Assembly: GCA_036391215.1 (NCBI GenBank) | Contig: DASWAI010000096.1 | Location: 1-35,229 of the forward strand | Reading direction: 5' to 3' | DNA length: 35,229 nt | From: Gemmatimonadales bacterium | Lineage (GTDB): Bacteria > Gemmatimonadota > Gemmatimonadetes > Gemmatimonadales > GWC2-71-9 | Shown: positions 157-20,767 of the stretch, one piece after another | Position numbering within the stretch: position 1 is the first letter of the stretch | Layout of the letters: each line of letters begins with the position of its first letter | Notes under the pieces: model-generated | The model's database searches: none | The model's input: the letters and a program-made list of their open reading frames with translations, nothing else | Told to the model about the DNA's origin: nothing | Program-made: the position numbers and the translations under genes

Positions 157-200
157 AGTTCCCTGCAGGTCCGACGTCAACCCCAGCGGATGGGAGCGCC

Positions 201-1565: not shown

Positions 1566-1586
1566 AGCAGGCCTGAGGAGGCCCGT

Positions 1587-2957: not shown

Positions 2958-2976
2958 ACGGAGAGAGACGCGTTAC

Positions 2977-4218
2977 GTGACCGAAAGTCAGATTCGGGTC
3001 GCTATCATCTCGACCGACGTCCGGTTCCGTGACCGTCTCCGCGAGGCGTTGTCGGAAAGCGGCAGGGGATTCCGGATCGTGCTGGAGTTGTCGGTGCGGT
3101 TCGGGGATTTCGGGGAAGAGCAGATCCGGGCCGTGCGCCAAGCCGGTCCGGACCTGCTGGTCGTTGATCTGGAGGACGATCCCGAGGTCGGGGTGAAGCT
3201 GGTGCAGTTCCTGGCCGAGACGAACCCCGGCCAGCGAGTCCTGGCGGCGGGGCCGGCGCTCTCCCCGGCGCTCCTCCTCGCGGCCATGCGGGCCGGCGTC
3301 TCGGACTACCTCCAGAAGCCGGTCGAGCCCGATGTGTTGTCCGAAGCGCTTCAGCGGGTGACGGTGCTGCTGGGCCGGGCCACGGAGAGCGCGAAGAAGC
3401 CGGGACAGGTCTTCTCGGTCTTCGGGGCCAAGGGCGGCACCGGGGCCACGACGCTGGCGACCAACCTGGCGATCGTGCTCCACCGGCTCACCGGCAAGCG
3501 GACGCTCCTGGTGGACCTCGACCTGGAGCTGGGCGAGGTGGCGGTGCTGCTGGGAGTGCGCCCGCGGTTCAACCTGGTGGACATGGTCCAGAACTTCCAC
3601 CGAATGGACGCCGGGCTATTGGCTTCCTACATCGAGCAGCATCCGTCGGGGGTGCACCTCCTGTCGGCGCCGTTCCATCCGGAGCGCGCCGAGGCGACGT
3701 CGGCTGACGAGATCCGGAAGATCATCCAGTTCCTGAAGCACCACTACGACTACGTGGTCGTGGACACCCCGAAGTCGTTCTCGCCGACCACGCTCGCGGC
3801 CTTTGACCAGTCGGACCTGGTGTTTCTGCTGGTGGCCCTGGATTTGCCGTCCCTCCGGAACGTCCAGCGAGGCCTGCCCCTGCTCAAGCGGGTGCTGCCC
3901 CGTGGACTGGACCAGACCCGGCTGGTGGTCAACCGCTACCAGCCGGATGAGGAGATCGGCCTCAAGGAGGTCGAGCAGACGCTGGGGCTCAAGGTGTTCT
4001 GGACGCTGAGCAACGACTACGAGGCGGTGATGCGCTCGATCAACGCGGGCAAGCCCATCGTCCTCAACGGCAACTCGAAGTACACCAAGGACGTGAAAGC
4101 GCTCGGCGCCAAGCTGGCCGGGCTCGGGGCGGCGAAGACTGTGGGCCGGCCGAGCGCGAGCCGGATCGTGGGCCAGCTCGTCGGCAAGATCGTGCGCAAG
4201 CCAGGAGACCAGGGATGA
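2977..4218 (+). CDS. cpaE: CpaE/TadZ: atypical receiver domain fused to a ParA/MinD-type ATPase
   Basis: GTG 2977. The N-terminus is REC-like (IRVAIISTD...LLVVDLEDD) and carries a deviant Walker [21 protein letters not shown]. The position between secretin and cpaF is canonical. Confidence 0.85.
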
Positions 4219-5660
4219 CGGAACCGGCCAAGCAGGACGGCGCTCCCAAGCCGCGGAGCACGACGGAGACGCGCCTCAAGCTGCCGTGGGAGCGGGTGGG
4301 CGGCGCCGATGCGGCACCGCCGCAGCGGACGGGCGAGATGCCCGTGGTTTCCTCGGCCAAGCAGCACTTCTTCCAGGAGATCAAGGGCCGGGTCCACCGC
4401 AAGCTGATCGAGCGGCTCAATCTCTCGAGCCTCGACAAGCTGTCGCGGGAGCAGGTGGTGGACGCGATCCGCAAGGTGGTGCACGATCTCCTCGCCCAGG
4501 AGTCCGCCCCGCTCAACTTCGAGGAGCGGGAGGAGCTGGTCCGGCAGGTGCTGGACGAGATCTTCGGGCTGGGGCCGATCGAGCCGCTGATGCAGGACCC
4601 CGAGGTGTCGGACGTCCTGGTCAACACCTACAAGCAGGTGTACATCGAGCGCCACGGCAAGCTCGAGCCGACCGACGTCCGGTTCCAGGACGACAAGCAC
4701 CTGCTCCAGGTGATCGACCGGATCGTGTCCGCGGTGGGGCGCCGGATCGACGACTCCTCGCCCATGGTGGACGCCCGCCTGGCGGACGGCTCCCGCGTCA
4801 ACGCGATCATCAAGCCGCTGGCGATCGATGGCCCGCACCTCTCCATCCGCAAGTTCAAGCGCGATGCGCTGAGCGGCGAGGACCTTCTGGCCAAGGAAAG
4901 CCTCACCGAGCCCATGCTCGAGCTGCTCAAGGGCATCGTGCGGGCCCGGCTCAACGTGATCATCTCGGGCGGCACCGGCGCCGGCAAGACGACGCTGCTG
5001 AACATCCTGTCCTCGTTCATTCCGGTGAACGAGCGCATCGTCACGATCGAGGACTCGGCCGAGCTGCAGCTCAAGCAGCCCCACGTCGTGCGGCTGGAGA
5101 CCCGGCCGGCCAACATCGAGGGCATGGGCGAGGTGCCCCAGCGGCTCCTCCTGATCAACGCTCTCCGCATGCGGCCCGACCGGATCATCATGGGCGAGTG
5201 CCGCGGCGGCGAGGCGGTGGACATGCTCCAGGCCATGAACACCGGCCATGACGGCTCCATTACGACGATCCACGCCAACACTCCGCGCGACGCCCTGAGC
5301 CGGATCGAGACCATGGTCTCGATGTCGAGTCTCGACCTGCCCGAGCGGGCGGTACGGCAGCAGATCGCGAGCGCGGTGCAGGTGGTGATCCAGGTGAGCC
5401 GCCTGAGCGACGGCGCCCGCAAGGTGGTCCAGATCGCCGAGATCTCCGGCATGGAAGGCGACGTCATCACCATGCAGGACATCTTCGTGTTCGACCGGCA
5501 GGGCATCGGCGAGGACGAGCGGGTGCTCGGGAAGTTCAAGGCATCCGGCATCCGGCCCAAGTTCACCGAGCGCCTCAAGGCGTACGGAATCGACCTCGGC
5601 TCGCTCCTGTTCATGAACCGGGAGAGCGGTCCCCGCATGGCGGGCGGAGGGCGCTGGTGA
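4215..5660 (+). CDS. cpaF: CpaF/TadA secretion ATPase
   Basis: The start overlaps the cpaE stop as ATGA (4215-4218). Walker [16 protein letters not shown]; typical VirB11/TadA core ([24 protein letters not shown]). Confidence 0.95.
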
Positions 5661-6646
5661 ACCTGCCGAACTCGTCCTGGATCTCCGCCGGGCTCGTCTT
5701 TCTCACGGTTGTGCTCGCCACCGTGGGCCTCGCCCTCCTGCTCGAGTTCGTGCAGGAGGCGCGGCGGCGGCGCCAGGTCGTCCGGCAGCTCCAGACCTTC
5801 GGGACGCTCGACTCGGAAGCCATGACCGGCGCCGGCGGGCTGCTCCGGCGCCCGATCGAGCAGCAGCCGGCCTGGGTGCAGGCGCTTTCGGCGTACACCC
5901 CGCGGATCGGCGACCTCGGATTCCTGATCCAGCAGGCCGGGGTCTCGTGGAGCGCGAACACGCTCCTGCTGCTCTGCCTCGGACTTGCGGCGGGCCTGTT
6001 CCTCGCCGTGCTGACCATCACCCGGTTCCTGCCGTTCGCCGGTATCGCCGCGGCGTTCGGCGCCTACCTGCCCATCTGGTACCTCAGGCGGCGGCGGAGG
6101 AAACGGGCCGACGCGTTCGAGGCTGGGCTGCCCGAGGCCATCGATCTGCTGGGCCGCGCCATCCGCGCGGGACACCCGCTCTCCGCCGGCCTCAAGATGG
6201 TGGCCGACGAGGCGCAGGAACCGATCTCGGGCGAGTTCCAGCGGACCTTCGAGGAGCAGCGGTTCGGCCTCCCGTTCGACGACGCCATCATCGCCATGGC
6301 CGACCGGGTGAATCTGGTGGACGTCCGGATCCTGGTGACCGCCATCCTGATCCAGCGCGAGGTCGGCGGCAACCTGGCCGAGGTGCTCGACAACCTCGCG
6401 ACCGTCATCCGGGCCCGCTTCACGATCCGGCGCCAGCTCCGGGTGTACACGGCGCAGGGGCGGTTCACCGGCTACACGCTGGCGGTGCTGCCGATCATCG
6501 TGGGTTCGGTCATCTACATGCTGAACCCGCCCTACATGCGGCTCCTGTTCACCCACCCGATGGGCAAGCTGATGGTGGCCATCGCCGCCGTCATGCAGGT
6601 CATCGGATATCTCTGGATCCGCAAGATCGTGGACATCGAGATCTGA
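5657..6646 (+). CDS. tadB: TadB, type II secretion system F-family inner-membrane platform protein
   Basis: GTGA overlap with the cpaF stop (5657-5660). T2SSF-type cytoplasmic domain ([22 protein letters not shown]) flanked by hydrophobic helices. Confidence 0.9.
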
Positions 6647-6653
6647 GGCCCTT

Positions 6654-7583
6654 GTGATCCTCGCCGTCGCCCTCGCGCTCATCGCTCTCTCCGTCACCTT
6701 CGCCGTGCTGTTCCTGGGCGAGGTGGCGCCGGGAAGGCAAAGCGCGCTCGGCGCCAGGCTCTCCGAGCTGGAAGGGGCCGACCCCCACGCCGCCGAGACG
6801 ATCCGCAAGCGCCGCCGGCAGCTGCGGGCGGAGAAGATGACCGCGCTGGTGCAGGCCCTGGGCGAGCGGCTCGAGCCGGGCCGAAAGGACATCCCGGCCA
6901 TCCGGCTCCGGATGCTCCAGGCCGGGTTCCCCAGCCCCTCGGCGGTTCCGGTCTTCCTGGGCTCCCGCATCGCGCTCCCGATCGCCATGGGCTTCAGCGC
7001 GGTGACGATCCTCGGGTTCCTGGGGATGACGAGCTTCGCGGGCCTCATCGCCACGGTCTGGTTCGCCGCGCTGGGGTACATCGCGCCGTCGGTCTACGTG
7101 AACGGACGGATCCGCGGCCGCCAGAAGGAGATGCAGCGCGCCCTGCCGGACGCCCTCGACCTGCTGGTGGTCTGCGTAGAGGCGGGGCTCGGGCTCAACC
7201 AGGCCATGGTGCGCGTGTCGGAGGAGATCGAACGGCTGAGCCCGGTGCTGAGCGAGCAGCTCGCGCTGGTGAACCTCGAGATCCGGGCGGGCACGGGCCG
7301 CGAGGAGGCGTTCCGCAACATGGGGGAGCGCACCGGGCTCGACGACATCAAGTCGCTGATGGCCATGCTGATCCAGACCGACCGCTTCGGCACCTCGATC
7401 GCGCAGGCGCTCCGGGTGCAGGCGGACACGCTCCGGACCAAGCGGCGGCAGCGGGCCGAGGAGGCCGCGGCCAAGACCACGATCAAACTGGTCTTCCCGC
7501 TCGTACTCTTCATCTTCCCGGCCATGTTCGTGGTGATCCTGGGCTCGGCGCTCATCCAGATCTTCGAGGCCCTCGGGCGCTAG
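6654..7583 (+). CDS. tadC: TadC, second T2SS-F-family platform protein
   Basis: GTG 6654. [22 protein letters not shown] motif with N- and C-terminal TM helices. It follows tadB. Confidence 0.9.
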
Positions 7584-7585
7584 CG

Positions 7586-7948
7586 ATGCGCGTCGTGCGG
7601 GTGCTGAACCGCCGGGGGCCGGTCCTCGGCGACCGGATCGGGGTGGCCGACCGATGGTGGCCCCGGTTCCGGGGGCTTCTGGGCCGGGCGGCGCTCGAGC
7701 CGGGCGAAGGGCTGCTGCTGGAGCCGTGCCGGGCGGTGCACATGCTGGGAATGCGGTTCGCGCTCGACGTCGCGTTCCTCGACCGGGACGGCACCGTGGT
7801 CGCTGCCTATCCGAACCTGCGCCCCGGCGCCCGGACCGGGTGGCACCGCCGGGCAACCCGGGCGCTGGAGCTGCCGGCCGGCACGCTGGCCGCCAGCGGC
7901 ACGCGGGAGGGGGACCAGATCGTGTGTACCGAGGAGGCACGTCCATGA
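7586..7948 (+). CDS. DUF192 (COG1430)-like small protein
   Basis: ATG 7586, 2 nt after the tadC TAG. 120 aa with the pattern GLLGR..L..GEGLLL.PC.AVHMLGMRFALDVAFLDRDG.VV....L.P, typical of DUF192 as I recall it. Confidence 0.7.
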   Translation: MRVVRVLNRRGPVLGDRIGVADRWWPRFRGLLGRAALEPGEGLLLEPCRAVHMLGMRFALDVAFLDRDGTVVAAYPNLRPGARTGWHRRATRALELPAGTLAASGTREGDQIVCTEEARP

Positions 7949-9294
7949 CCGCGAGCACCGCGCCAGCCGCGCCGCCGGCGCCGGCCGGCGAACCGACCCG
8001 CCCGCCGCTTCCCGAGACAATCGCCGACACCGGGCTGTCGACGGAATTCATCACGGACCTGCTGCTCAAGGCGCTGTATAGCCAGGGCGCGCGCACCGGC
8101 CAGCAGCTGATGGAGACGGTGAAGCTGCCGTTCCCGTTCGTGGACGATCAGCTGCTCTCGCTGCAGCAGCGGCGGATGGTCGAGGTGCGCGGCACCAGCG
8201 GCGCCGGCCGCGGCGGATACATGTTCGACCTCACCGGCGAAGGCCGCACCCGCGCCCGCGAGGCGCTGGAGTCGAGCCAGTACGTCGGCCCGGCACCCGT
8301 GCCGCTCAAGCAGTACCGCGAGTGGACCCACCGTCAGTCCATCTCCCGGGTGCACGTGGCCCGTGACACGGTCAAGACCGGCTTCCGCAACATGGTGATC
8401 GCCGAGCCCATCCTCGAGATGCTGGGGCCGGCCATCAACTCCGCCAAGTCGCTCTTTCTCTATGGCGGGCCGGGCAACGGCAAGACGCTCATCGCCGAGA
8501 CAATCTCCCGCCTGCTGGGCGGCGCGCTCTTCATTCCGTACGCCATCGAGGTGGAAGGGCAGATCCTGGTGCTCTACGACCCGGTCTACCATCACGAGGT
8601 GAAGGAGCCCGAGCCCGAGGTCACGGGCGACGAGCCGGCCTGGCTCAAGAGCCTGCCGGAGCACGACCGCCGCTACATCCTGATCGAGCGGCCGGTGGTG
8701 ATCACCGGCGGGGAGCTGACGCTGGACCAACTCGACCTTCAGTACGACACCTACACGAAGATGTACCAGGCCCCGTTCCAGCTGAAGGCGAACGGCGGCG
8801 TGCTCATCCTCGACGACTTCGGCCGCCAGCGGACTCCGCCGCGCGACCTGCTCAACCGCTGGATCGTGCCGCTGGAGAAGCGCATCGACTTCCTCACGCT
8901 GCACACCGGCGGCAAGTTCCCGGTGCCGTTCGACACGCTGCTGATCTTCTCCACCAACCTCTCGCCCCACGAGCTGGTGGAGGAGGCGTTCCTGCGGCGG
9001 ATCCACTACAAGCTGCACGTCTTCGGTCCCACCCAGACCGAGTACGCCGAGATCTTCCGCCGCTGCTGCGCCGAGCGCGAGATCGAGTACGAGGACTGGG
9101 CGGTGCCGCACCTGTACAAGGAGTATTACGGGCGGCGCCAGATCATCCCGCGGAACTGCCATCCGCGCGACGTGCTCGATCACTTCCTGGACATGGTCCG
9201 GTACCTGGAGGCCGCGCCGCGGCTCACGCCCGACCTGCTGGACCGGGCGTGCAACTCCTACTTCCTTGACGCGCCCCAGGAGGTATCCGCGTGA
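7945..9294 (+). CDS. AAA+ ATPase with a long N-terminal (possibly wHTH-like) extension, family unassigned
   Basis: ATG 7945 overlaps the DUF192 stop as ATGA, with GAGGAGG at 7931-7937. Walker A is LFLYGGPGNGKTL and Walker B GGVLILDDFG; also LIFSTNL...EEAFLRRIHYK. The track ORF start at 7654 would overlap DUF192 and lacks an RBS. Confidence 0.8.
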   Translation: MTASTAPAAPPAPAGEPTRPPLPETIADTGLSTEFITDLLLKALYSQGARTGQQLMETVKLPFPFVDDQLLSLQQRRMVEVRGTSGAGRGGYMFDLTGEGRTRAREALESSQYVGPAPVPLKQYREWTHRQSISRVHVARDTVKTGFRNMVIAEPILEMLGPAINSAKSLFLYGGPGNGKTLIAETISRLLGGALFIPYAIEVEGQILVLYDPVYHHEVKEPEPEVTGDEPAWLKSLPEHDRRYILIERPVVITGGELTLDQLDLQYDTYTKMYQAPFQLKANGGVLILDDFGRQRTPPRDLLNRWIVPLEKRIDFLTLHTGGKFPVPFDTLLIFSTNLSPHELVEEAFLRRIHYKLHVFGPTQTEYAEIFRRCCAEREIEYEDWAVPHLYKEYYGRRQIIPRNCHPRDVLDHFLDMVRYLEAAPRLTPDLLDRACNSYFLDAPQEVSA

Positions 9295-10004
9295 GCGGCA
9301 CGCCGGCGCCCGACGCCGCGCGTCCCGAGGACCAGGCGCGGCACCGCCCGGAGGTGGTGTTCCTCCACCGGCTGGAGGCGCTCGAGCGGGAGAACCGGCG
9401 GCTCCGCCGGTACAGCACCTATGCCTTCATGGGCCTGGCCATCCTGCTGGGCCTGATCGTGGCGCTGGTGTGGATGAGCGGCCGGCAGGGTGCGCCCGGC
9501 ACCGTCGCCGACCAGGTGGCGGCCCGCCAGTTCGTGCTGCGGGACAAGACCGGCGCCATCCGCGGCGTCTGGGGGCTGGGAGAGGACGGCGCCGTGCGGC
9601 TCGCGCTGCAGGACCCGGCCGCCCGGCCCCGGGTCAAGGTGAGCTTGCTCCGGGACGGGACCGCCGGCCTCTCGTTCGCCGACTCGGCCGGGCATCCGCG
9701 TGCCGTCTTTGCGCTGCTGCCGGACCAGACCGGCTCGGTGGCGTTCGCGGACGACGCGGGCCGGACCCGGAGCGTGCTCGGGATCTCGGCCGACGGTTCG
9801 GCCAACATCGTCTTCGCCGACCGGTCCGGCTCCACCCGGGCGGGCCTCGGCGTGGACGAGGCCGGCCACAGCACCTTCACCCTGGCCGACCGGATGAGCG
9901 ATTCGCAGGCGCCGGTCACCGAGAGCGTCGGGGGCGAGGCTCCGGACTCCCAGCCGGCCGCCGCGGCCGCCAAGGGGCACACCCCGCCGAAGCGCAAGCG
10001 CTGA
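9291..10004 (+). CDS. Single-pass membrane protein with about 5.5 tandem 23-residue repeats
   Basis: GTG 9291 overlaps the AAA+ stop as GTGA, with CCAGGAGG upstream. The N-terminus is charged and coiled-coil-like (LHRLEALERENRRLRR), followed by a TM helix (YAFMGLAILLGLIVALVWM). Repeats of the form xxxLxFxDxxGxxRxxLGxxxDG follow. Confidence 0.6.
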   Translation: MSGTPAPDAARPEDQARHRPEVVFLHRLEALERENRRLRRYSTYAFMGLAILLGLIVALVWMSGRQGAPGTVADQVAARQFVLRDKTGAIRGVWGLGEDGAVRLALQDPAARPRVKVSLLRDGTAGLSFADSAGHPRAVFALLPDQTGSVAFADDAGRTRSVLGISADGSANIVFADRSGSTRAGLGVDEAGHSTFTLADRMSDSQAPVTESVGGEAPDSQPAAAAAKGHTPPKRKR

Positions 10005-10032
10005 CGCCGCGTCCAGGCGGATGCGGCCCACG

Positions 10033-10067
10033 GGCCGGCGGACCCCAGGGTCCCGCCGGCCTTTTTT
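10033..10067 (+). terminator. Rho-independent terminator closing the tad operon
   Basis: ggccggcggacc (10033-10044) pairs with ggtcccgccggcc (10049-10061), with one bulged C and a 4-nt loop. TTTTTT follows at 10062-10067. Confidence 0.75.
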
Positions 10068-10099
10068 GATGGTAAATTGGCGCACCAGCAGATTCGAGG

Positions 10100-11551
10100 A
10101 TGCGCGAGATGCACCGACGAACCTTACTTGCCCTCGGGCTTGGCGCCTGCGCGGCCGTCGTCTGGGCCTGCGCCGTCAATCCCGTCACCGGGAAGAGCGA
10201 ACTCTCCCTCGTGTCCGAGTCCCAGGAGATCGAGATGGGCCGGCAGAGCGCGCAGAGCGTGCAGCAGAGCATCGGTTACTACGACGATGCGGCGGTTCAG
10301 GCGTACGTCGCCGGCATCGGGCAGAAGATGGCGGCTGCCTCCGAGCGGCCCCAGCTCCCCTGGGAATTCCACGTCGTGAACGACGCCGCCATCAACGCAT
10401 TCGCGCTACCGGGCGGCTTCATCTACGTGACCCGCGGGCTCATGACGTCCATCACCAATGAGGCGGAGCTCGCGACGGTGGTGGGCCACGAGATCGGCCA
10501 CGTCACCAACCGCCATTCCGTGCAGCAGATCTCCCGCGCCGAGCTCGCCCAGATCGGACTTGGCGTCGGTTCCATGCTGAACTCCACGGTCGCCCAGCTC
10601 AGCGGGGTGTTCGGGCAGGGGCTCAGCATCCTGTTCCTCAAGTACGGGCGGGATGCGGAGAACGAGGCGGACCTCGCCGGGTTCCGCTACGCACTGAACC
10701 AGAACTACGACGTTCGGCAGATGATCAACATGTTCGCGACCGTCCAGGCGGAGAGCCAGCTGAGCGGCGCCGGGCGGGTGCCGGAGTGGCTTTCCACCCA
10801 TCCCGATCCCGGCAACCGGATCCAGACCACCCAGGCCCGGCTCGACACGCTGCACAAGGATCTGAGCAAAGCGATGGTGCGCCGGGACGAGTACCTCCAG
10901 CGGATCAACGGGATGGTCTACGGAGAGGATCCTCGCCAGGGCTTCTTCCGCGGCGCGCTCTTCCTGCATCCCGACCTCCGGTTCCAGCTGCAGTTCCCGG
11001 ACGGCTGGAAGACCCAGAACACGGCGGACGCCGTGGTGGCGGCGAGCCCGAACCAGGATGCCATCATCCAGCTCCAGCTGGCGGGCAAGACCGCTCCATT
11101 GGACGCCGCCCGCCAGTTCCTCTCCCAGCAGGGCGTCACGGCGGGGCAGGGAACGACGCAGTCCATCAACGGGCTGTCGGCGGCCGCGAGCTATTTCTCG
11201 GCCCAGACCCAGCAGGGGCAGGTCGAAGGACTGGTCACGTTCGTCTCGTACGGCGGAACCACCTACGGCATCATCGGGTACACCCCGGCCGGCGGCCTGC
11301 GCAGCTACGACCAGGCTTTTCGCGCGACGGCCGGGAGCTTCCGCCAGCTCACGGACCCGACGGCGCTCAACGTGCGCCCGGCCCGGATCCAGCTGGTCAA
11401 GGTGGACCAGCCGATGACACTGGCGCAGTTCAACCAGCGCTACCCGTCCACCGTGCGGATCGAGGAGGTGGCGTTGATCAACGGAGTGGAGGGACCGGAT
11501 GCGGCCCTGCGGCCGGGACAGCAATACAAGAGGGTGGTGGCGGGAAAGTGA
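10100..11551 (+). CDS. M48-family zinc metallopeptidase, probable lipoprotein
   Basis: HEIGH zinc motif in VVGHEIGHVTNRH. Lipobox-like LGLGAC in the signal peptide. 483 aa. An alternative ATG lies at 10109. Confidence 0.9.
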   Translation: MREMHRRTLLALGLGACAAVVWACAVNPVTGKSELSLVSESQEIEMGRQSAQSVQQSIGYYDDAAVQAYVAGIGQKMAAASERPQLPWEFHVVNDAAINAFALPGGFIYVTRGLMTSITNEAELATVVGHEIGHVTNRHSVQQISRAELAQIGLGVGSMLNSTVAQLSGVFGQGLSILFLKYGRDAENEADLAGFRYALNQNYDVRQMINMFATVQAESQLSGAGRVPEWLSTHPDPGNRIQTTQARLDTLHKDLSKAMVRRDEYLQRINGMVYGEDPRQGFFRGALFLHPDLRFQLQFPDGWKTQNTADAVVAASPNQDAIIQLQLAGKTAPLDAARQFLSQQGVTAGQGTTQSINGLSAAASYFSAQTQQGQVEGLVTFVSYGGTTYGIIGYTPAGGLRSYDQAFRATAGSFRQLTDPTALNVRPARIQLVKVDQPMTLAQFNQRYPSTVRIEEVALINGVEGPDAALRPGQQYKRVVAGK

Positions 11552-11627
11552 GAAGTGAGCAGTGAGCAGTGAGAAGTGAGAAGTGAGAAGGCAGCGGCCA
11601 TCCACCTTCTCACTTCTCACTGCTCAC
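11548..11627. repeat. Inverted pair of heptamer arrays (GTGAGAA/GTGAGCA x6, spacer, TTCTCAC/TGCTCAC x3)
   Basis: Read directly. Six forward units span 11548-11589 and three reverse-complement units span 11607-11627. A perfect 21-bp stem is possible between 11562-11582 and 11607-11627. Confidence 0.9.
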
Positions 11628-12270
11628 TAACCAGCTCCCGCGCCCGCTCGAATATCGCGTGCCACATCTTCCGGGTCAGCTTCCCGGTGTTGGTGTTCTG
11701 CCGGCTGGGGTGGAACGAGGAGAGCAGGATCCTTCCGTCGGGCAGGGTGGCCTCGGCGCCGTGCGCGAACGGCGGCCGCTCAGCCGGCCGGAGCCGGTCC
11801 CACCATCCGCTCGCGCGCAGCCAGCCCTCCCATGCCACCCGCCCGAGCACGAGCACGACTTTGACCGACCCAAGCAGGCCGAGCTCCCGCTCGAGGAACG
11901 GCCGGCAGCGGTCCAGCTCCCGGCGGGTCGGCTTGTTGTCGGGCGGAGCGCAGCGGGCGGTGGCGGTGATCCAGCAGCTGGACAGGGTGAGGCCGTCGTC
12001 GCGGGCGCGGGAGACCGGACTGCTCGCAAAGCCGTACCGGTGCAGGGCCTCGTAGAGCCAGTCGCCGCTCGAGTCGCCGGTGAACATCCGGCCGGTACGG
12101 TTGGCGCCGTGGGCCGCGGGCGCGAGGCCCACGATCATGAGGCGGGCGGTGGGATCGCCGAAGGCGGGCACCGGCCGTCCCCAGTAGGTCCACTCGCGAA
12201 ACTCGCGCTTCTTCTGCCGGGCCACCTTCCGCCGGTGGGCCACGAGCCGGGGACAGCGCTCGCAGCTCAC
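11617..12270 (-). CDS. Fe-S uracil-DNA glycosylase, family 4/5 (UdgB-like)
   Basis: CERCPRL near the N-terminus and the GLAPAAHGANRTGRMFTGD motif. The stop TGA 11617-11619 lies inside the heptamer array. The true start may lie upstream (see findings). Confidence 0.85.
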   Translation of the reverse strand: MSCERCPRLVAHRRKVARQKKREFREWTYWGRPVPAFGDPTARLMIVGLAPAAHGANRTGRMFTGDSSGDWLYEALHRYGFASSPVSRARDDGLTLSSCWITATARCAPPDNKPTRRELDRCRPFLERELGLLGSVKVVLVLGRVAWEGWLRASGWWDRLRPAERPPFAHGAEATLPDGRILLSSFHPSRQNTNTGKLTRKMWHAIFERARELVSEQ

Positions 12271-12314
12271 GATCGCCCGCTCCAGCGCGGCCAGCTCGCG
12301 CGGGATGGACTGGG

Positions 12315-13604
12315 TCAGCTCACTCTCCGGGTCTTCCGCTTCATGAAGTCCATGAGGATGAACTGGCCCAGCGTCATCGTGTTGGTGAAGTACGCCTTCC
12401 CCTTGCAGATGGCCGCGACCTGCTTGACGAACTCCACCAGGCTCCGGTCGCGCGCGAGCATGAACGTGTTGATCATGATGCCGCTGCGCCGGCAGTTGGC
12501 CACCTCGCGGTAGGTGGCGGCCAGGATCTGCGGGTCGAGCCCCATCGAGTTCACGTAGATCCGGCCGTCGGGCATCGTGAGCGCGGACGGCTTCCCGTCC
12601 GTGATCATGATGATCTGGCGCATGTCCTTCTTCTGGCCCAGCAGGATGCGCCGGGCGAGCTTGAGCCCCTCGGCGGTGTTGGTGTGATAGGGCCCGACCT
12701 GCGCCGCGGCCAGCGCGCTCAGCGGGATCTCCTCCGCCGAGTCGTGGAAGAGCACGACCCGGAGGCTGTCACCCGGGAACTGGGTGCGGATGAGGTGGGT
12801 GAGCGCGAGGGCCACCTTCTTGGCCGGGGTGAACCGGTCCTCCCCGTACAGGATCATCGAGTGGGAGCAGTCGAGCATCAGCACCGTCGCGGAGGACGAA
12901 CGGTATTCCGACTGGCTCACCATCAGGTCCTCGTACTCGAGGTTGAGCGGCACCCCCAGCCCCTCGCGGGCGATCGCGCTGCCGAGCGTGGCCGGCACGT
13001 CGAGGTTGAGCACGTCGCCGAACTCGTACGGCTTGCTGGTCCCCTCGGTCTCGACGCCGGTGGCCAGATAAGGGGTCTCGTGGGCCCCGAAGCTCGACTT
13101 GCCGACGCTCCCGAGCAGGTTCTTGAGCGTCTTGTAGCCGAGGAAGTCGATGCCCTTCTCGGTGAGGTTGAAGTGCACCTGCTGGGCGGCGGACTGGGCC
13201 ATGCCCCCGGGGCCAAGGACGGACTGATAGCCGCCCGGCACCTGGGGGGCCTGGCTCACGTTCAGGTACCCCTCGTCGATCAGCCGCTGCACGATCCGGT
13301 CGAGCAGCTCGCCCAACGCCCGCTCGATCTCCTTGTCGCGATCCGGATCGCCCGTCCCTTCGCCGCGGAGCACCTTGAGCATCTCCGGCGTGAGCTGGCC
13401 GGACTCCATGAGGGCCCGAAGCACCGCCTGCTTGAGGGCGTCGAGCGAGCGGTCGCCGCCCTCCATCTCGTCCTGCCAGAACGACTGCCCCTGCCCGGCG
13501 AAGCCGGACTGGAGCAGGAAGTCGCTCAACTGGTCGAGCAGGCCCTGGAGATTGACCGCGTCGGCGAGTTCGGGGACGAATTTCGAGTACGTCGTGAAGC
13601 GCAT
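12315..13604 (-). CDS. von Willebrand factor A domain protein (COG4867-like, partner type of ChlI-like ATPases)
   Basis: ATG 13604. The C-terminal vWA domain has an intact MIDAS DxSxS motif (VLMLDCSHSM). 429 aa. Confidence 0.85.
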   Translation of the reverse strand: MRFTTYSKFVPELADAVNLQGLLDQLSDFLLQSGFAGQGQSFWQDEMEGGDRSLDALKQAVLRALMESGQLTPEMLKVLRGEGTGDPDRDKEIERALGELLDRIVQRLIDEGYLNVSQAPQVPGGYQSVLGPGGMAQSAAQQVHFNLTEKGIDFLGYKTLKNLLGSVGKSSFGAHETPYLATGVETEGTSKPYEFGDVLNLDVPATLGSAIAREGLGVPLNLEYEDLMVSQSEYRSSSATVLMLDCSHSMILYGEDRFTPAKKVALALTHLIRTQFPGDSLRVVLFHDSAEEIPLSALAAAQVGPYHTNTAEGLKLARRILLGQKKDMRQIIMITDGKPSALTMPDGRIYVNSMGLDPQILAATYREVANCRRSGIMINTFMLARDRSLVEFVKQVAAICKGKAYFTNTMTLGQFILMDFMKRKTRRVS

Positions 13605-13616
13605 GGGGCGAGCCGC

Positions 13617-13772
13617 GTAAACGGTGAACCGGGGGCCTGTGGGGGATGCCCTGCCTCCTCAATGCTATCCCCGATTCCGGGCTGGTTCAATGCGGGCGGC
13701 CGTGCCCAGGGGCCCTGGGCCATTCGCGGTTTCCGCCGTCCCCCGGTTCATTGTTCACCGCTCACTGTTTAC
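13617..13772. repeat. About 156-bp composite element: inverted heptamer arrays (GTAAACG GTGAACC ... GGTTCAT TGTTCAC CGCTCAC TGTTTAC) flanking about 110 bp
   Basis: Left array 13617-13630 plus GGGGG. Right array is CCCCC plus 13745-13772. gtgaaccggggg (13624-13635) pairs 11/12 with cccccggttcat (13740-13751). A small internal hairpin lies at 13704-13720. Confidence 0.75.
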
Positions 13773-13792
13773 TCTTGGGCGTGTCCACCGCC

Positions 13793-15034
13793 ATGACCGC
13801 CGCGTCCGCGCTCCCCCGGGCCGCCGCCCTGCGGCTCCGGTCGACGTTCGCCGCGCTCCGCCACCGCAACTTCCGCCTCTTCCTGATTGGCCAGTTCGTC
13901 TCGCTGTGCGGCACCCTGATGCAGCAGGTGGCGCTCGGGTGGCTGGTCCTCGAGATCACCAACTCGCCCTTCGCCGTCGGCCTGGTGACGACGCTCGGGT
14001 CGCTTCCCATCCTGGTGCTCACGCTCTACGGCGGCGTGCTGGCGGACCGGGTGGACAAGCGGCGCTTCGTGCTCCTGCTCCAATGCCTGATGCTGACCGA
14101 GGCCCTGGCGCTCGCCGTCCTCACCGCCTTTCACCGGATCACGGTGCACTGGATCATGGGGCTCGCGGTGTTCGCCGGCACTCTGTCCGCCTTCGAGGTA
14201 CCCACCCGCCAGGCCCTGGTGGCGGACTTGGTCGAGCGGGAAGACCTGATGAACGCCCTCGCGCTCAGCTCGATGGGGTTCAACGTGGCCCGGGTGATCG
14301 GTCCCGCCATCGCGGGCGCCCTGATCGCGCTCTGGGGCCTGGCGGCCTGCTTCTTCGGGAACGCCCTCAGCTATCTCGCGGTGGTCGCGAGCCTGGTGCT
14401 CATGCGCACAGCCCCGCCGGCGTCCGGCTCCCGCCCGAACGCGCTGGCCGCGATGAAGGAGGGGTTCCGCTACGTGATGGACAACCGGTGGCCCCGCGCG
14501 CTGGTGGTGCTGATCGCGGGCTTCGCCGTCTTCGGGTTCCCGTTCATCATCATGGCCCCGGTCTTCGCGCGGGACGTGCTCCGGGTCGGGGCCTCGGGCT
14601 ACGCCGCCCTGGTCTCGGCGATCGGCGTGGGCGCGGCCGTCGGCGCGCTCGCGCTGGCCGGGTTCGGGAAGCGCTACCGCAAGGAGCGGCTCCTGATCGC
14701 GGCGTCGGCGCTGTTCGGCGTGACGCTCGCGAGCATCGCGCTGGTCTCGAGCTTCTCGGCGTCGATCGCGCTCTTCACCCTGGCGGGATGGACGATGGCC
14801 ACCAACGGCATCCTGGGGAACACCCTGCTCCAGATCCAGGCGCCGGACCACCTGCGCGGCCGGGTGATGGGCGTGTACTCGTTCCTGGTCCTCGGCCTGG
14901 CGCCGTTCGGCTCGTTCCAGGCCGGCCTCGTCGCCGAGCATCTCGGCGTGCGCTACTCGATCGGGCTTGGCGGCGCGGTATGCTGCCTCACCGTTGCCGG
15001 CGTCGCCTGGTACCTCGGACGCACCAGACCATGA
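13793..15034 (+). CDS. MFS transporter (EntS/MFS_3-like exporter)
   Basis: Multiple hydrophobic helices. The conserved N-terminus begins at MTAASALPRAAALRLRSTFAALRHRNFRLFLIGQF and includes YGGVLADRVDKRR. The upstream part of track ORF 13646 covers the repeat element and looks non-coding. GTG 13781 is an alternative start. Confidence 0.85.
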   Translation: MTAASALPRAAALRLRSTFAALRHRNFRLFLIGQFVSLCGTLMQQVALGWLVLEITNSPFAVGLVTTLGSLPILVLTLYGGVLADRVDKRRFVLLLQCLMLTEALALAVLTAFHRITVHWIMGLAVFAGTLSAFEVPTRQALVADLVEREDLMNALALSSMGFNVARVIGPAIAGALIALWGLAACFFGNALSYLAVVASLVLMRTAPPASGSRPNALAAMKEGFRYVMDNRWPRALVVLIAGFAVFGFPFIIMAPVFARDVLRVGASGYAALVSAIGVGAAVGALALAGFGKRYRKERLLIAASALFGVTLASIALVSSFSASIALFTLAGWTMATNGILGNTLLQIQAPDHLRGRVMGVYSFLVLGLAPFGSFQAGLVAEHLGVRYSIGLGGAVCCLTVAGVAWYLGRTRP

Positions 15035-15052
15035 CCGCACCGTGAGGCAGCC

Positions 15053-15676
15053 ATGCTGATCACCGTCTCCCGCGAGTACGGCGCCGGCGGGTCCGAAGTC
15101 GCGCGGCGCGTGGCGGACGCCCTCGGCTGGCGGCTGGTGGACAACGAGCTGCTCGAGCGGGTGGCGGCCCGCGCCGGGATCTCGCCGGAAGACATGGCCG
15201 GGATCGAGGAGCGGACGCCGAGCTTCATCGAGCGGCTCGCGCGGGTGCTCGCCACCTCGACGCCAGAGCTGTTCCCGCCGCCTACCGGCACCGTGGCGGA
15301 GCTGTCGGAAGCCACGCTGGTCCGGATTACCGAGGCGGTCGTGGAGGAGGCGGCGCGGGACGGGCGGGCGGTCCTGGTGGGGCGGGCCGCGCCGGCGGTG
15401 CTGGCGCGGGAGCGGGACGCGCTCCACGTCCGGCTGGTCGCCAGCCGCGCGTTCCGCATCCGGGCCACCGCCGAGCGCCTGGGACTCGACCCCAAGGAGG
15501 CCGAGCGGATCATGGTCCAGACCGACGCGCAGCGGGAGCGGTACCATCGCGAGCACTACGCCCGCGCCTGGGCCGACCCGGTGGGCTATCATCTCGTGAT
15601 CAACACGGAGCGGCTGGGCTACGACGGAGCGGCGGCGGTGATCGTGGCGGAGGCGAGGAGGAGAGGCTGGAGGTGA
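15053..15676 (+). CDS. Cytidylate kinase-like family protein (Cytidylate_kin2 type)
   Basis: The N-terminus MLITVSREYGAGGSEVARRVA is the hallmark of this family. The stop TGA 15674-15676 lies in a heptamer unit. Confidence 0.8.
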   Translation: MLITVSREYGAGGSEVARRVADALGWRLVDNELLERVAARAGISPEDMAGIEERTPSFIERLARVLATSTPELFPPPTGTVAELSEATLVRITEAVVEEAARDGRAVLVGRAAPAVLARERDALHVRLVASRAFRIRATAERLGLDPKEAERIMVQTDAQRERYHREHYARAWADPVGYHLVINTERLGYDGAAAVIVAEARRRGWR

Positions 15677-15718
15677 GAGGTGAGAGGGACGTTCCCCCCT
15701 TACCTCTCACCTCTTACT
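15671..15718. repeat. Inverted heptamer pair (AGGTGAG x2 ... CCTCTCACCTCTTAC) forming a hairpin between convergent genes
   Basis: 15673-15687 pairs with 15703-15717, about 15 bp including one G-U. The loop is 15 nt. Confidence 0.85.
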
Positions 15719-15728
15719 CTCTCCTTGC

Positions 15729-17204
15729 TCACCCAAAGGAGATCCCGCCTTTCCCGTACCCCGGCTCCCGCCGCTCCGGCTTGGCCCGGGTGTAGCCCAG
15801 CTCCTCGCTCCGGCTGATGCGCTTCTGGGCGGCCAGGCCCTCCAGCACCAGCTCGCAGGCGGCCACCTCGTACCCCGCGTCGCCGCGGGGCGCGAGGCCC
15901 ACGTCGCTCACAAGGTCCAGAAGCCCGGGGACGACCCCGAAGCCCTTGAGGCCCACCTCGGCCCGCTCGTCGCCCGAGATCTTGAGCGCCCCGCCCTGGT
16001 CGAACCAGGCGACGACGCGCCCGAGATCGGCGCCGCCGGCCCGGTCCTCCAGCACCCGCCCCGCCGCCCGGCGGATCAGCTCGCGGGCGATGACGTCGCC
16101 GCCCTGCAGCTCGCCTTCGTACTCCAGCTCCAGCTTGCCGGTGATCGCCGGCGTGGCCGCGTAGACGTCGCTCACCCGCGGGACGGCCCGCCGCTCGTGC
16201 AGGGCGAGCGCCCGGCGCTCCGCGTTCGACACCACGCTCTCCAGCACGCTGATCGGGAGCCGCTGGCTCACGCCCGAGCGGCGGTCCACCCGCTTGTCCT
16301 CCCGTGCCTCGAACGCCACCCGCTCGACCAGCTCGAGGATGAAGTCGGGCACGGCCACCTCGGGTCCGTCCCGACGGGTCCATGCCTCCTGCGCCGTGAT
16401 CTCCATGCCGAGCTGCACGGTGCGGGGGTAGTGGGTGATGACCTCGGAGCCGATCCGGTCCTTGAGCGGGGTGATGATCTTCCCCCGCGCGGTGTAGTCC
16501 TCCGGGTTCGCGGTGAACGCGAGCAGCACGTCCAGCGGCAGGCGCACGGGATAGCCTTTGATCTGGACGTCGCCTTCCTGCATGATGTTGAACAGGCCCA
16601 CCTGGACCTTGCCGCTCAGATCGGGCAGCTCGTTGATCGCGAAGATGCCGCGGTTGGCCCGGGGCAGGAGCCCGAAGTGCATCGTGAGCTCGTCGGAGAG
16701 CAGGTGGCCGCCGCGCGCCGCCTTGATCGGGTCCACGTCGCCGATGATGTCGGCGATGGTGACGTCCGGTGTCGCGAGCTTCTCGACGTAGCGCTGCGAC
16801 CGGTCGAGCCACGCGATGGCGGTGGCGTCCCCGCATTCGGCCAGCCGGTCGCGGGCGTACTTGGAGATGGGGGCGAAGGGGTCGTCGTTCACCTCGCTCC
16901 CAGCCACGATGGGGATCCGCTCGTCCAGGAGCGAGACCAGCTGGCGCAGGATGCGGCTCTTGGCCTGGCCGCGAAGCCCGAGGAGGATGAAGTGGTGCCG
17001 GGCCAGGAGGGCGTTGACCAGCTGGGGGACGATGCTGTCCTCGTAGCCGACGATCCCCGGGAAGAGCTCCTCGCCCGAGGCCAGCCGGGCGACGAGGTTG
17101 GAGCGGATTTCGTCCCGCACCCTCCGCCCGCGGAGCGGGGGGTCGGCCCAGGGGCTGTTGCGGAGCTCCCCGAGAGTCCGGGGCTGGATGCCGTGCGCTT
17201 TCAC
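15729..17204 (-). CDS. ChlI/BchI-like (Mg-chelatase-type) AAA+ ATPase with variant Walker motifs
   Basis: [18 protein letters not shown] and [14 protein letters not shown] align to the ChlI Walker B and Walker A regions. GTG 17204 has GAGG 7 nt upstream. The extension to the track start at 17327 is Pro/Gly/Arg-rich and probably untranslated. Confidence 0.8.
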
Positions 17205-17333
17205 GAAGCTACCTCGACTCGGCGGGGCTGCGGCGACGCGCCGGGCCCCTCGTTGCGGAACGTGGCCGGATGGGACCGCCGGGGCAAGTCCGGTGCCGGG
17301 CACGACATAGCTAAGTCGGCCCCCCACGGCGGC

Positions 17334-17361
17334 TTGACAAATGCCGACGGGGCCTTAGCTT
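17334..17361 (+). promoter_or_regulatory. Candidate sigma-70-type promoter for the small lipoprotein gene
   Basis: TTGACA (17334-17339), a 16-nt spacer, then TAGCTT (17356-17361), about 80 nt upstream of ATG 17441. It is bracketed by the imperfect inverted repeat AGCTAAG..GGCCCC / GGGGCCTTAGCT. Confidence 0.4.
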
Positions 17362-17440
17362 CGCACGCCGTACGCCCGACGACAGCGGCGGCATGCGCCC
17401 TATGTCTTCCTGGACACCCAACCATTTAAGGAGCAACACC

Positions 17441-17620
17441 ATGAAGAAGACCCTATGCCTGGCCGCCGTGCTTGCGGTTATGGCCTGCGCCGGTGAGAAA
17501 AAGGCTGAGGCCCCGGCTTCGTCCGAGGCTCCGGCTGCCGCTCCTGCCGCCGGCAGCATGGACAGCACCATGATGAAGCACGACAGCACCATGGCGCGGG
17601 ACACCAGCAAGAAGATGTAA
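17441..17620 (+). CDS. Small Met-rich secreted lipoprotein (MxKDx-repeat-like)
   Basis: ATG 17441 with AAGGAG at 17428-17433. Signal peptide MKKTLCLAAVLAVMAC with a lipobox Cys. The mature part is Ala/Pro-rich and then MDSTMMKHDSTMARDTSKKM. Confidence 0.6.
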   Translation: MKKTLCLAAVLAVMACAGEKKAEAPASSEAPAAAPAAGSMDSTMMKHDSTMARDTSKKM

Positions 17621-17652
17621 GCGCGCGAGCGCCGTTCGCCGCACTGTCGCCA

Positions 17653-17686
17653 CGAGCCCCGGGGGAGCCTGCTCCGCCGGGGCTCG
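17653..17686. terminator. GC-rich hairpin between convergent genes (possible bidirectional terminator, no clear U-tract)
   Basis: cgagccccgggggagc and gctccgccggggctcg form a 16-bp stem with one mismatch. Confidence 0.45.
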
Positions 17687-17698
17687 GTCGTTCCCGCC

Positions 17699-18688
17699 TC
17701 AGCCGTCGAGATCCTCCGGGGCGAAGGGCAGGGCCACCACCCGGGCCGCCCGCCCGCCCGCCTCGACTTCCTCACCCGTCGCCACCTCGCGGCGAATGGG
17801 GGCGAGCCCCAGCAACCGGTCGTCCAGCACCAGCGTCGAGCGCACGTTGCCGACCGGCCGCCCGGCCGCGGTGACCGCGTCGCCCTCCAGCGGCGCCGCG
17901 CCCCGCCAGATCAGTCCCCTGAGCTCGCGGTTGGTATGTCCCCGGAAATGGAGCCGCGCCACCGTTTCCTGACCCACGTAGCAGCCCTTGGTGTAGGAAA
18001 CGCCGCCGAGCTGGTCGTAGCGTACCTCCTGCGGGAGCGTGCGGTCGTCGATCTCGGCACCAAGCGCCGGCCATCCGGCGAGGATCCGCGCGGCCTCCAG
18101 GTCCTCGGCGGTGCCCTGCTCGACGCCCGCGCCGCCCAGGGCCGCGATGAGCCTCTGCACCACGGCCCGGGGCCCCAGCGCAACGGCGGCAAAGGGCGCC
18201 GTCTCCGGGGCGAGGCCCAGCAGGAGCCGGCCCTCGGGGTACTCGAGGGCCACGGTGCGGCCGGCCGCGTCCGGTATCGGCTTGATGGGGGAGCGGGCGA
18301 GCGCGGCGAACGCCTGGGACCCGAGCAGCCACGCCACCTCCACCTGGCCCGTCATATCCGTGATCCGGGCCAGACGGGGCGGCACCTGCCGGCGGAAGAG
18401 GTCGTCCGACGCCAGGCGGCTCTCGATCGGCGCCACCAGCGTGAATCCTGCGGGCTCGCGGAAAACCCAGTAGTCCACCACGATCGAGCCCTTGGGAGTG
18501 AGCAGCGCGCCGTAGGTGAGGCTGTGATCACCCGGCTTGTCCAGATCGCTCGTGAGCAGGCCCTGGAGGCAGGTGAGCGCGCCCGGTCCGGCGAGCTGGA
18601 ACACCGCGGGCTCACCGGTCACCACCACCGCGCCGCGGCGCAAGCGGTCGAGCCGCGAACGATCGTATCCCAGCTCACGCGGCGGCAT
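17699..18688 (-). CDS. ygfZ: YgfZ/GcvT-like folate-binding protein
   Basis: KGCYVGQE signature (YTKGCYVGQETVARLHFRGH). ATG 18688 (MPPRELGYD...) overlaps the HAD gene end by 14 nt. The longer track ORF to 19066 runs through the HAD gene. Confidence 0.8.
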   Translation of the reverse strand: MPPRELGYDRSRLDRLRRGAVVVTGEPAVFQLAGPGALTCLQGLLTSDLDKPGDHSLTYGALLTPKGSIVVDYWVFREPAGFTLVAPIESRLASDDLFRRQVPPRLARITDMTGQVEVAWLLGSQAFAALARSPIKPIPDAAGRTVALEYPEGRLLLGLAPETAPFAAVALGPRAVVQRLIAALGGAGVEQGTAEDLEAARILAGWPALGAEIDDRTLPQEVRYDQLGGVSYTKGCYVGQETVARLHFRGHTNRELRGLIWRGAAPLEGDAVTAAGRPVGNVRSTLVLDDRLLGLAPIRREVATGEEVEAGGRAARVVALPFAPEDLDG

Positions 18689-19349: not shown

Positions 19350-19350
19350 G

Positions 19351-19397
19351 GTGAACGGTGAACACTGAAGTGTAAACGGGGCCCCCCGCCGGCGGGG
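19351..19397. repeat. Heptamer array GTGAACG GTGAACA CTGAAGT GTAAACG followed by the 14-nt palindrome CCCCGCCGGCGGGG
   Basis: Read directly: array 19351-19378, palindrome 19384-19397. It fills the glcF-HAD intergenic gap. Confidence 0.8.
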
Positions 19398-19413
19398 AAG
19401 CGCAGGCTACCGG

Positions 19414-20730: not shown

Positions 20731-20767
20731 CTCTCACTTCTCACCTCTCACTTCTCACTCTTCTCAC
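20731..20767. repeat. Direct heptamer array (minus strand GTGAGAA GA GTGAGAA GTGAGAG GTGAGAA GTGAGAG) spanning the glcE stop and abutting the glcF start
   Basis: The plus strand reads ctctcac ttctcac ctctcac ttctcac tc ttctcac. The glcE TGA is at 20748-20750, inside the third minus-strand unit. Confidence 0.9.

Follow-up and report, generated by a model that had tools for sequence, protein, structure and literature searches.

What role, if any, is played by a tandem array of seven-nucleotide units that is folded back on itself between two convergent genes and supplies the stop codons of both? The question is raised by an element at positions 11548-11627 of a 35,229-nucleotide stretch of DNA from a soil Gemmatimonadales bacterium (GenBank assembly GCA_036391215.1, contig DASWAI010000096.1; the whole stretch is hereafter called the window), in which GTGAGAA and GTGAGCA units and their inverted counterparts lie between a Peptidase M48 gene and a UDG-superfamily gene. 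Heptamer microsatellites have been known since 2007 as the commonest longer simple repeats in many bacteria, and their role has hardly been studied. Together with its relatives, this locus provides a natural series in which the junction and the hairpin stay while the units are rewritten within about 3% flank divergence. The locus is ordinary for its class; the class itself is unexplained, and the rules that it obeys make a specific, testable claim on transcript 3' ends.

Here, we describe the anatomy of this fold-back, its fate at orthologous junctions, and the regularities of comparable arrays in bacterial genomes and viral contigs. Two rules stand out: the purine-rich arm invariably comes first, and such fold-backs are found preferentially at 3' ends between convergent genes. 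We infer, with a probability of roughly 0.45, that the element is a hypervariable bidirectional 3'-end hairpin without a U-tract, which would either terminate transcription or block 3' exonucleases.

A heptamer fold-back at the M48-UDG junction

The M48 gene (10100-11551, forward strand; Peptidase_M48, E 1.9e-38) ends in ...VVAGK* on a TGA at 11549-11551, within the first repeat unit, and the convergent UDG gene (11617-12270, reverse strand; UDG, E 5.8e-27) ends in ...ERARELVSEQ* with its stop at 11617-11619 (TCA on the forward strand), within the second minus-strand unit; the last three residues of the latter protein, SEQ, are repeat-encoded and not conserved. The purine-rich 5' arm (11548-11589) consists of six tandem units read directly on the forward strand, namely one GTGAGAA, two GTGAGCA and three further GTGAGAA. 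It is followed by a 17-nt spacer or loop, GGCAGCGGCCATCCACC (11590-11606), which contains a small internal stem in the predicted fold, and by the pyrimidine-rich 3' arm (11607-11627), composed of the inverted units TTCTCAC, TTCTCAC and TGCTCAC and free of stop codons on the forward strand. The 3' arm is the exact reverse complement of 11562-11582, which gives a perfect 21-bp stem, and a repeat finder reported inverted arms of 24 nt at 96% complementarity and of 32 nt at 88%. Overall, the fold-back has a stem of 21-25 bp at 43-57% G+C with 17-24 nt between the arms; the repeat unit is likewise at 43-57% G+C, against 70.8% for the window. Tandem Repeats Finder assigned period 7 to both arrays (6.4 copies at 94% matches and 3.3 copies at 93%). 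A preliminary description of this DNA, made from the letters alone, had given the units, the spacer, the stem and the two stop codons inside the array exactly as they are.

The array is non-random, intergenic and hairpin-forming on both strands. It is a head-to-tail heptanucleotide repeat beyond chance length, predominantly non-coding, and three phased GTGARNN units (at most one mismatch) match the window 13 times versus 0.01 expected from 100 shuffles, at 11548-11627, 13747-13772, 19351-19369 and 20719-20765, all of them intergenic or on stop codons, which bears out the earlier proposal of a dispersed intergenic family. The predicted RNA fold of the array region has an energy of -56.0 kcal/mol on the forward strand (z -7.2) and -60.7 kcal/mol on the reverse strand (z -8.6), and 0 of 200 shuffles folded as well. 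As had been noted before, no T/U-tract follows the stem: the next sequence is TAACCAGCTCCCG, where a scan for the terminator consensus gave no match, and canonical terminators (hairpin plus T-run) in 9500-25500 occur at the chance level (4 found versus 4.3 expected). The suggested search of Rfam for a catalogued family gave no match at the gathering threshold and, at E <=1, only sub-threshold generic long hairpins (microRNA precursors).

The preliminary description knew of no element class with these properties and placed the array nearest to repetitive extragenic palindromic (REP) sequences, bacterial interspersed mosaic elements (BIME) and miniature inverted-repeat transposable elements (MITE). 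Both statements have to be revised, given that heptanucleotide repeat classes are already described and are nearer. The element belongs to a described, little-studied class of bacterial heptanucleotide repeat pairs and does not constitute a new class. What is new is the unit, its occurrence in this phylum, the fact that array and stop codons overlap, and the series of orthologous junctions, together with, as far as could be found, the general reach of the polarity rule. Heptanucleotide long simple sequence repeats (LSSRs) are the most abundant class of 5-11 nt simple sequence repeats in many prokaryotes (Mrazek, Guo and Shah 2007, as summarised in PMC4679880 and PMC4692102), slippage by the polymerase has been suggested as their basis (Mrazek 2007, per PMC4679880), and LSSR5-11 are reported from free-living bacteria with large genomes (Mrazek 2007, via PMC4679880 and PMC4692102). 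The arrays analyzed here resemble them as over-represented period-7 microsatellites, mostly non-coding and with length variation of the slippage type; LSSR5-11 is, however, a statistical class, for which these summaries give no fold-back architecture, polarity rule or association with gene ends.

In Xanthomonas campestris, 186 GGGAATC arrays are known, of which 89-93% are intergenic (Rehm et al. 2015, PMC4692102), at a mean of 28 nt from the end of the upstream open reading frame (ORF) and 160 nt from the next ORF, and 70-75 cases are convergent array pairs, one per strand, whose length differs between species (PMC4692102). The likeness is extensive: tandem seven-nucleotide units in variable number (2-26 in Xanthomonas), about 90% intergenic and nearer to the upstream ORF end, many convergent opposite-strand pairs capable of forming a stem-loop, and a type that is usually kept between related species while the length differs. 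As in the Xanthomonas pairs, the opposite-strand arrays at the M48-UDG junction lie close together, here at a distance of 17 nt, and near the 3' ends of the genes, but the unit lacks a G-tract and hence the G-quadruplex potential that was the property studied by Rehm et al. Furthermore, the unit in this member of the phylum Gemmatimonadota contains a stop codon, overlaps gene ends and itself switches flavour between close relatives.

Other intergenic heptamers that carry TGA or TAA include TAACTGA of Beggiatoaceae, Cyanobacteria and Bacteroidetes, the cyanobacterial short tandemly repeated repetitive (STRR) heptamers and MTYCTGA of Geobacter. In Geobacter metallireducens, MTYCTGA x5 sites occur in inverted pairs (PMC2700814), as the arms of the M48/UDG element do. 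TAACTGA arrays precede start codons (MacGregor 2015, PMC4679880), a position shared with an unpaired array of the window at 20709-20772, which also lies just upstream of a start codon; in contrast to the fold-back, they have other units, comprise 169 direct sets versus one indirect, and lie before start codons, not at gene ends. A full-text literature search for strings of GTGAGNN units found no bacterial paper.

Several further candidates were discarded: CRISPR, because there are no spacers; a G-quadruplex, because GTGAGAA and GTGAGCA have no GG or GGG run; a CRP-like TGTGA/TCACA operator, because the spacing does not fit; and tandem sites resembling a Shine-Dalgarno (SD) sequence, because that explanation applies only to the GAG/GGA flavours.

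Turnover of units and persistence of the hairpin among relatives

Homologues of the M48 protein number in the thousands, and those that bear a name come from Gemmatimonadales metagenome-assembled genomes (MAGs); the gene order tad pilus operon, M48, UDG, VWA, MFS is kept in relatives. The region downstream of M48 was gathered from more than 80 relatives, and 13 orthologous M48-UDG junctions were folded. Despite M48 nucleotide identities of 96-97.5% (blastn), the 5' and 3' arms have 6/3 units in the window, 9/5 in L121, 3/3 in L445 and 4/4 in L444, the last with the GTGAGAG flavour and a different loop; copy-number variation, for which the preliminary description had recommended looking, is thus evident. 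The unit itself is replaced in other relatives. The 5' and 3' arms read, respectively, GTGAGAG/GTAAGAG (six to seven units) and CTCTYAC (four units) in L125 and L446, GTGAGAG and CTCTTAC in L128, GTAAACA/GTGAACA and TGTTCAC in L127, GTGAACG and CGTTCAC in L123, L132 and L138, GTGAAAA and TTTTCAC in L139, GTGAGCC/GTGAGCG and its complement in L142, and GGGAGAA-like and TTCTCCC-like units in L136; some more distant relatives have period-8 fold-backs at this junction.

All 13 folded junctions give predicted hairpins of -39 to -78 kcal/mol on both strands, and many junctions of distant relatives have an extra inner GGGGG...CCCCC hairpin. Variant units are paired in register, such that, in L125, the loop-proximal GTAAGAG stands opposite the loop-proximal CTCTTAC. 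Most relatives retain a long hairpin at the junction even as the loop and the sequence and number of the units change rapidly, the two arms doing so together. In the orthologs examined, either the first or the second unit holds the M48 stop, and the UDG residues that follow the conserved ERARELV vary among relatives (SEQ, GQK, GTA), so that this tail, already described as repeat-encoded, is array-encoded and unconstrained. The junction downstream of a cytidylate-kinase-like gene behaves similarly, with (GTGAGAG)2-3 in the window, (GTGAGAA)7/(TTCTCAC)5 in L121 and GTRAACN units in L122.

Under the favoured reading of a 3'-end hairpin, replication slippage would add and remove repeat units, and the complementarity of the arms could be kept by selection for the hairpin, by hairpin-templated strand switching, or by both. 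The same extreme turnover, along with presence/absence variation among close relatives, also speaks for a functionless by-product, in which slippage acts where untranslated DNA tolerates arrays, strand switching (quasi-palindrome correction) makes or keeps the partners, and the biases in position and orientation mark only where arrays are harmless. Repeat periods point the same way: among arrays of at least three units in 407 kb of Gemmatimonadales contigs chosen via M48, period 7 is the commonest (30 arrays, compared with 15 for period 8, 8, 8 and 2 for periods 5, 6 and 9, and none for periods 10-11), very short period-4 arrays aside (27, mostly about 12 nt), which fits the slippage idea as it is summarised (Mrazek 2007, per PMC4679880). 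What a by-product leaves unexplained is the persistence of a hairpin at one junction through at least five unit flavours, and, in view also of the polarity and position rules described below, we regard this account as somewhat unlikely.

A DNA-level or mobile nature of the element, as a palindrome resembling REP, REPIN (REP doublet forming a hairpin) or MITE sequences that a transposase or gene conversion has spread, or as an array of GTGAR sites at 7-nt spacing recognized by a DNA- or RNA-binding protein, is distinctly improbable. The recurrence of a few flavours across sites (GTGAGAR, and GTRAACN with a GGGGG/CCCCC clamp), their replacement, loop included, at orthologous sites of close relatives, and the character of the junction as a palindrome hot spot, where more distant relatives have a different dispersed palindrome (GTCATCCTGAGCGAAGCGAAGG...), all favour it. 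Yet the copies in the window share the repeat unit only and have different loops, units drift continuously and not as fixed copies, and no transposase-family match was obtained among the ten window proteins scanned or the Pfam labels of neighbouring genes. Moreover, no GTAG head, target-site duplication or clean empty site was identified at the orthologous junctions; in L129-L131, which are without the array, the tails of the two genes are different as well, and neither a duplication nor a clean empty site can be read there.

The resemblance to REP, BIME and REPIN elements lies in the dispersal of extragenic palindromes at gene 3' ends or between convergent genes and in the hairpins formed by inverted doublets. 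Those elements are, unlike the present ones, fixed sequences of 20-40 nt with a GTAG head, spread by REP-associated tyrosine transposases (RAYTs), whereas the arms of the fold-backs are microsatellites that vary in unit number and lack a common loop or head, and no RAYT is in view in 35 kb. The sites in the window do not have a conserved 20-40 nt palindrome with a GTAG head in near-identical copies. The E. coli REP elements have been proposed to stabilise upstream mRNA.

The palindrome GTCATCCTGAGCGAAGCGAAGG...CCTTCGCTTCGCTCAGGATGAC was observed at the M48-UDG junction of the distant relatives L143, L145, L147, L150, L157 and L159 and, further, of L169, L170, L176, L177, L179 and L182. Heptamer arms enclose it in L157, and its appearance is that of a REP/MITE-like family of soil bacteria.

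Polarity, position and a possible role at transcript 3' ends

The pattern (GTGAGNN)x3+GTGAG was scanned in 185,579 species genomes, and viral contigs (IMG/VR) were scanned for GTGAG and for a control unit of the same composition, GGATG. Each of the three scans gave at least 120 matches, and GTGAG is thus not shown to be privileged among 5-mers; the counts below refer to the matches listed. The GTGAG loci in genomes came from Gemmatimonadota, Bacteroidota, Acidobacteriota, Planctomycetota, Cyanobacteria, Chloroflexota, Proteobacteria, Campylobacterota and others, with G+C contents of 31 to 72%. An inverted partner within 150 nt was located downstream of the array in 18/109, 24/126 and 27/128 arrays of the three sets and upstream in 0, so the purine-rich arm is 5' on both strands in 69 pairs versus 0 of the opposite arrangement. 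The polarity extends to the stop-free control unit GGATG and to period-8 fold-backs of Gemmatimonadales contigs. The two arms have the same flavour, as judged at the two variable unit positions, in 11/19, 14/24 and 15/28 fold-backs, compared with 1.7, 2.2 and 6.5 expected from independent draws.

Position is similarly constrained. An open frame on the array's own strand, 100 codons or more in length, comes to its end between -90 and +21 of the array start for 76% of the GTGAG arrays; the corresponding values are 17% for random positions and 29% for frames approaching from the other side. Of the fold-backs in the three sets, 9/14, 12/22 and 13/25 are situated between convergent ORFs of at least 120 codons; at random positions, an ORF end is found on a given strand 15-19% of the time.

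These rules are what a functionless by-product fails to explain: a strand-symmetric DNA process accounts neither for a purine-rich 5' arm in 69/69 pairs nor for the location of about half of the pairs between convergent ORFs, even though the arbitrary GGATG control arrays are as easily found as those of GTGAG and many arrays are unpaired, as a by-product would have it. The argument from polarity is one of symmetry. Strand exchange maps the purine-first and the pyrimidine-first arrangement each onto itself, so a strand-symmetric process cannot tell them apart, and the 69:0 ratio points to a process in which a single strand is read 5' to 3'. The most economical candidate for such a process is transcription. 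The purine-first and convergent-gene rules, unexplained by strand-symmetric slippage alone, therefore point to a role at the RNA level at transcript 3' ends.

Stop codons offer another explanation of the array. Six stop triplets lie on the array strand and none on its complement, with TGA in all three frames, as the preliminary description had recognized when it called the array a frame-independent stop cassette. This is a true property of the sequence; it is not a general rule, because fold-backs made of stop-free units have the same polarity and position. As a translational device, the array would end translation of both genes in any frame, act as a backup after read-through or frameshift, and make the gene end robust to slippage. 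For both genes, the incoming strand has TGA in every frame and the complement has none. Repeat units contain the stops of M48 and UDG, of the cytidylate-kinase-like gene and the gene convergent with it, and of a glcE-like gene, and the flavours have a conserved core, GT[GA]A followed by a purine, which amounts to UGA or UAA in purine surroundings. In addition, unpaired GTGAG arrays are sense-only versus antisense-only in ratios of 45:8 (genomes) and 35:11 (viral contigs), against 31:20 for stop-free GGATG. However, the same polarity and convergent location are seen for stop-free GGATG, period-8 GGACGGAA and GGCGCACA, and GGCGGAC, as well as for the stop-free GGGAATC of Xanthomonas (PMC4692102); one backup stop would be enough, leaving arrays of 6-18 units and the inverted partner unexplained; and relatives without the array are viable. 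All-frame stops are accordingly not the general principle, since stop-free units obey the same rules, and we consider a translational function improbable. The stops are probably the reason for the sense preference of stop-bearing units and not the primary function.

The period-8, purine-first fold-backs without stop codons were observed in L146 (3360-3453), L161 (4846-4961), L150 (3760-3896), L183 (2617-2835) and L186 (1607-1654), with the units GGACGGAA/TTCCGTCC, GGTCGGAC, GGCGCACA/GCGCCCGT and CGCCTGTC.

In the favoured reading, the transcribed hairpin would serve both convergent genes at their common 3' end, with the AT-rich, pyrimidine-rich 3' arm producing an RNA:DNA hybrid unusually weak for a 71% G+C genome and so replacing the U-tract. 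The all-frame stops would stem from the T-purine-purine in the unit and would let the array abut or overlap gene ends. Nearest-neighbour energies (Sugimoto) are consistent with the proposed weak hybrid: rUUCUCACU from the 3' arm gives -8.0 kcal/mol and rGUGAGAAG -9.95 kcal/mol, so that the observed polarity is about 2 kcal/mol weaker than the reverse, and only 1.3% of window 8-mers (mean -12.6 kcal/mol, sd 2.1) are weaker than the 3' arm. There is precedent for action on both strands, given that terminators composed of an A-tract plus a hairpin function bidirectionally (PMC4824070). Classical bidirectional terminators have the order A-tract, hairpin, U-tract (PMC4824070), which is the polarity of the element too. 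It resembles such intrinsic terminators in forming a hairpin between convergent genes, in being purine-rich on the 5' side and pyrimidine-rich on the 3' side of either strand, and in having a relatively weak RNA:DNA hybrid at the 3' side. It differs from them in the absence of a U-tract, in a stem of 21-42 bp versus roughly 5-14 bp, in a loop of 8-24 nt, in tandem-repeat arms, and in stop codons within or adjoining the stem; neither the U-run after the stem nor the short G+C-rich stem with a 3-8 nt loop of a canonical intrinsic terminator is present.

Several points weigh against this reading. The hybrid of the 3' arm, at -8 kcal/mol, is far stronger than that of U8 (-1.5), and the need for a U-tract in high-G+C bacteria is itself disputed. 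Stems of 21-42 bp far exceed those of typical terminators and would be substrates of RNase III. The M48 stop is only about 10 nt ahead of the stem and the UDG stop is inside it, and, in E. coli, a ribosome at a stop codon a few nt from a terminator represses it, full efficiency being reached at more than 27 nt (PMC4824070). Unpaired arrays, namely that at 20709-20772 and most of those in the cross-phylum sets, cannot work through a hairpin. The array is also dispensable, because L129-L131 (82-83% protein identity) lack it and their M48 and UDG genes almost abut. Finally, template switching alone, without selection, could maintain the complementarity of the arms, and the strand bias in G.U versus A.C pairs that RNA-level selection would leave is not consistently present across the 13 orthologs.

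A broader claim, that purine-first fold-backs of period 7-8 are general, cross-phylum and phage-borne bidirectional terminators independent of a U-tract, we hold to be unlikely. Here, the pyrimidine-rich 3' arm would again supply the weak RNA:DNA hybrid, and the repeats would provide many pairing registers. Slippage in unit number would allow fast evolutionary tuning of read-through and of the distance from stop codon to hairpin, and the absolute 69:0 polarity would be the signature of the mechanism.

Involvement of Rho, for which the pyrimidine-rich arm or the complement of an unpaired array might be a loading site directed against antisense transcripts, appears highly improbable. UUCUCAC repeats abound in YC dinucleotides and contain little G, and sense-oriented unpaired arrays do place the C-rich strand in antisense RNA. 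In a fold-back, however, transcription reaches the C-rich arm after its complement, and the arm would be hidden in the stem; also, a pyrimidine-first arrangement, which would suit Rho better, is represented by 0 pairs.

If termination without a U-tract is real, it bears on how transcription ends in high-G+C, poorly studied phyla and on terminator prediction in metagenomes. If the arrays have no role, the locus is still of use as a hypervariable marker by which strains can be typed, and it cautions that the 3' ends of genes and the C-terminal tails of their products are repeat-encoded here.

Two further observations arose from the scans. Viral contigs (L205-L443) frequently have heptamer arrays and convergent pairs, of GTGAG as well as of the control unit GGATG, including the GVMAG giant-virus bins L231, L232 and L245. 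In other phyla (L037, L040, L066, L106 and L024), an unpaired GTGAGNN array is situated between a stop codon and a canonical hairpin-plus-T-run terminator; such arrays could be spacers of variable length between stop codon and terminator.

Other heptamer sites and neighbouring features in the window

The five related sites named in the preliminary description fall into three groups: those at 15661-15732 and 20709-20772 belong to the same unit family as the M48/UDG array, those at 13617-13773 and 19351-19378 have the GTRAACN flavour, and that at 24069-24217 has an unrelated unit, GCCGTTG. The second fold-back of the family, GGTGAGAGGTGAGAGGG / CCTTACCTCTCACCTC (15661-15732), lies between the convergent cytidylate-kinase-like gene (forward strand) and a hypothetical gene (reverse strand), both of which stop on a unit TGA (15674-15676 and 15729-15731). 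The array of GTGAGAA and GTGAGAG units at 20709-20772 is unpaired. It separates the glcE-like gene from the co-directional glcF-like gene and runs in the sense orientation on the reverse strand; the upstream glcE-like gene takes from it both its tail, ...SEKSEK*, and its stop, and a purine-rich, SD-like run follows the array ahead of the downstream GTG start.

The sites of GTRAACN flavour at 13617-13773 and 19351-19420 are assigned to the same broad family because this flavour replaces GTGAGAA at orthologous sites in relatives. The former, in a divergent intergenic region, has arms about 100 nt apart, comprising GTAAACG, GTGAACC and GGGGG on one side and CCCCC, GGTTCA, TTGTTCAC, CGCTCAC and TGTTTAC on the other. 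The core between these arms (13640-13735), in the divergent VWA/MFS region, holds a stretch, CCTGCCTCCTCAATGCTATCCCCGAT, that L121 and L122 preserve despite variation in the arms and that may be a promoter or leader element. At 19351-19420, between the HAD and glcF-like genes (both on the reverse strand), GTGAACG-flavour units accompany a GC hairpin, and the orthologous site of L122 has a clean fold-back. The heptamer fold-back of unrelated unit, GCCGTTG ... CCAACGG (24069-24217), surrounds a GC-rich hairpin at 24116-24163; a CCGTTAG flavour of this type is also found in another Gemmatimonadales contig (L166, 444-471).

Not every convergent junction in the window has a heptamer fold-back: an ordinary GC-rich hairpin at 17653-17686 follows a 59-aa ORF (17441-17620) and is common to the convergent GCV_T-like gene. 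This ORF has a lipoprotein-like signal, MKKTLCLAAVLAVMACAG..., and is conserved in L121 and L122. The VWA-domain gene is 429 aa in the window (12315-13604) and in L122 versus 187 aa in the 97% relative L121 (12241-12804), although the intervening DNA is homologous, and the short call is probably due to a frameshift or assembly error in that MAG. Upstream of M48, a complete tad/Flp-type pilus operon (81-10000) encodes RcpC, a secretin, a TadZ-like response-regulator ATPase, a T2SSE ATPase and two T2SSF proteins, its genes tightly packed and without heptamer arrays.

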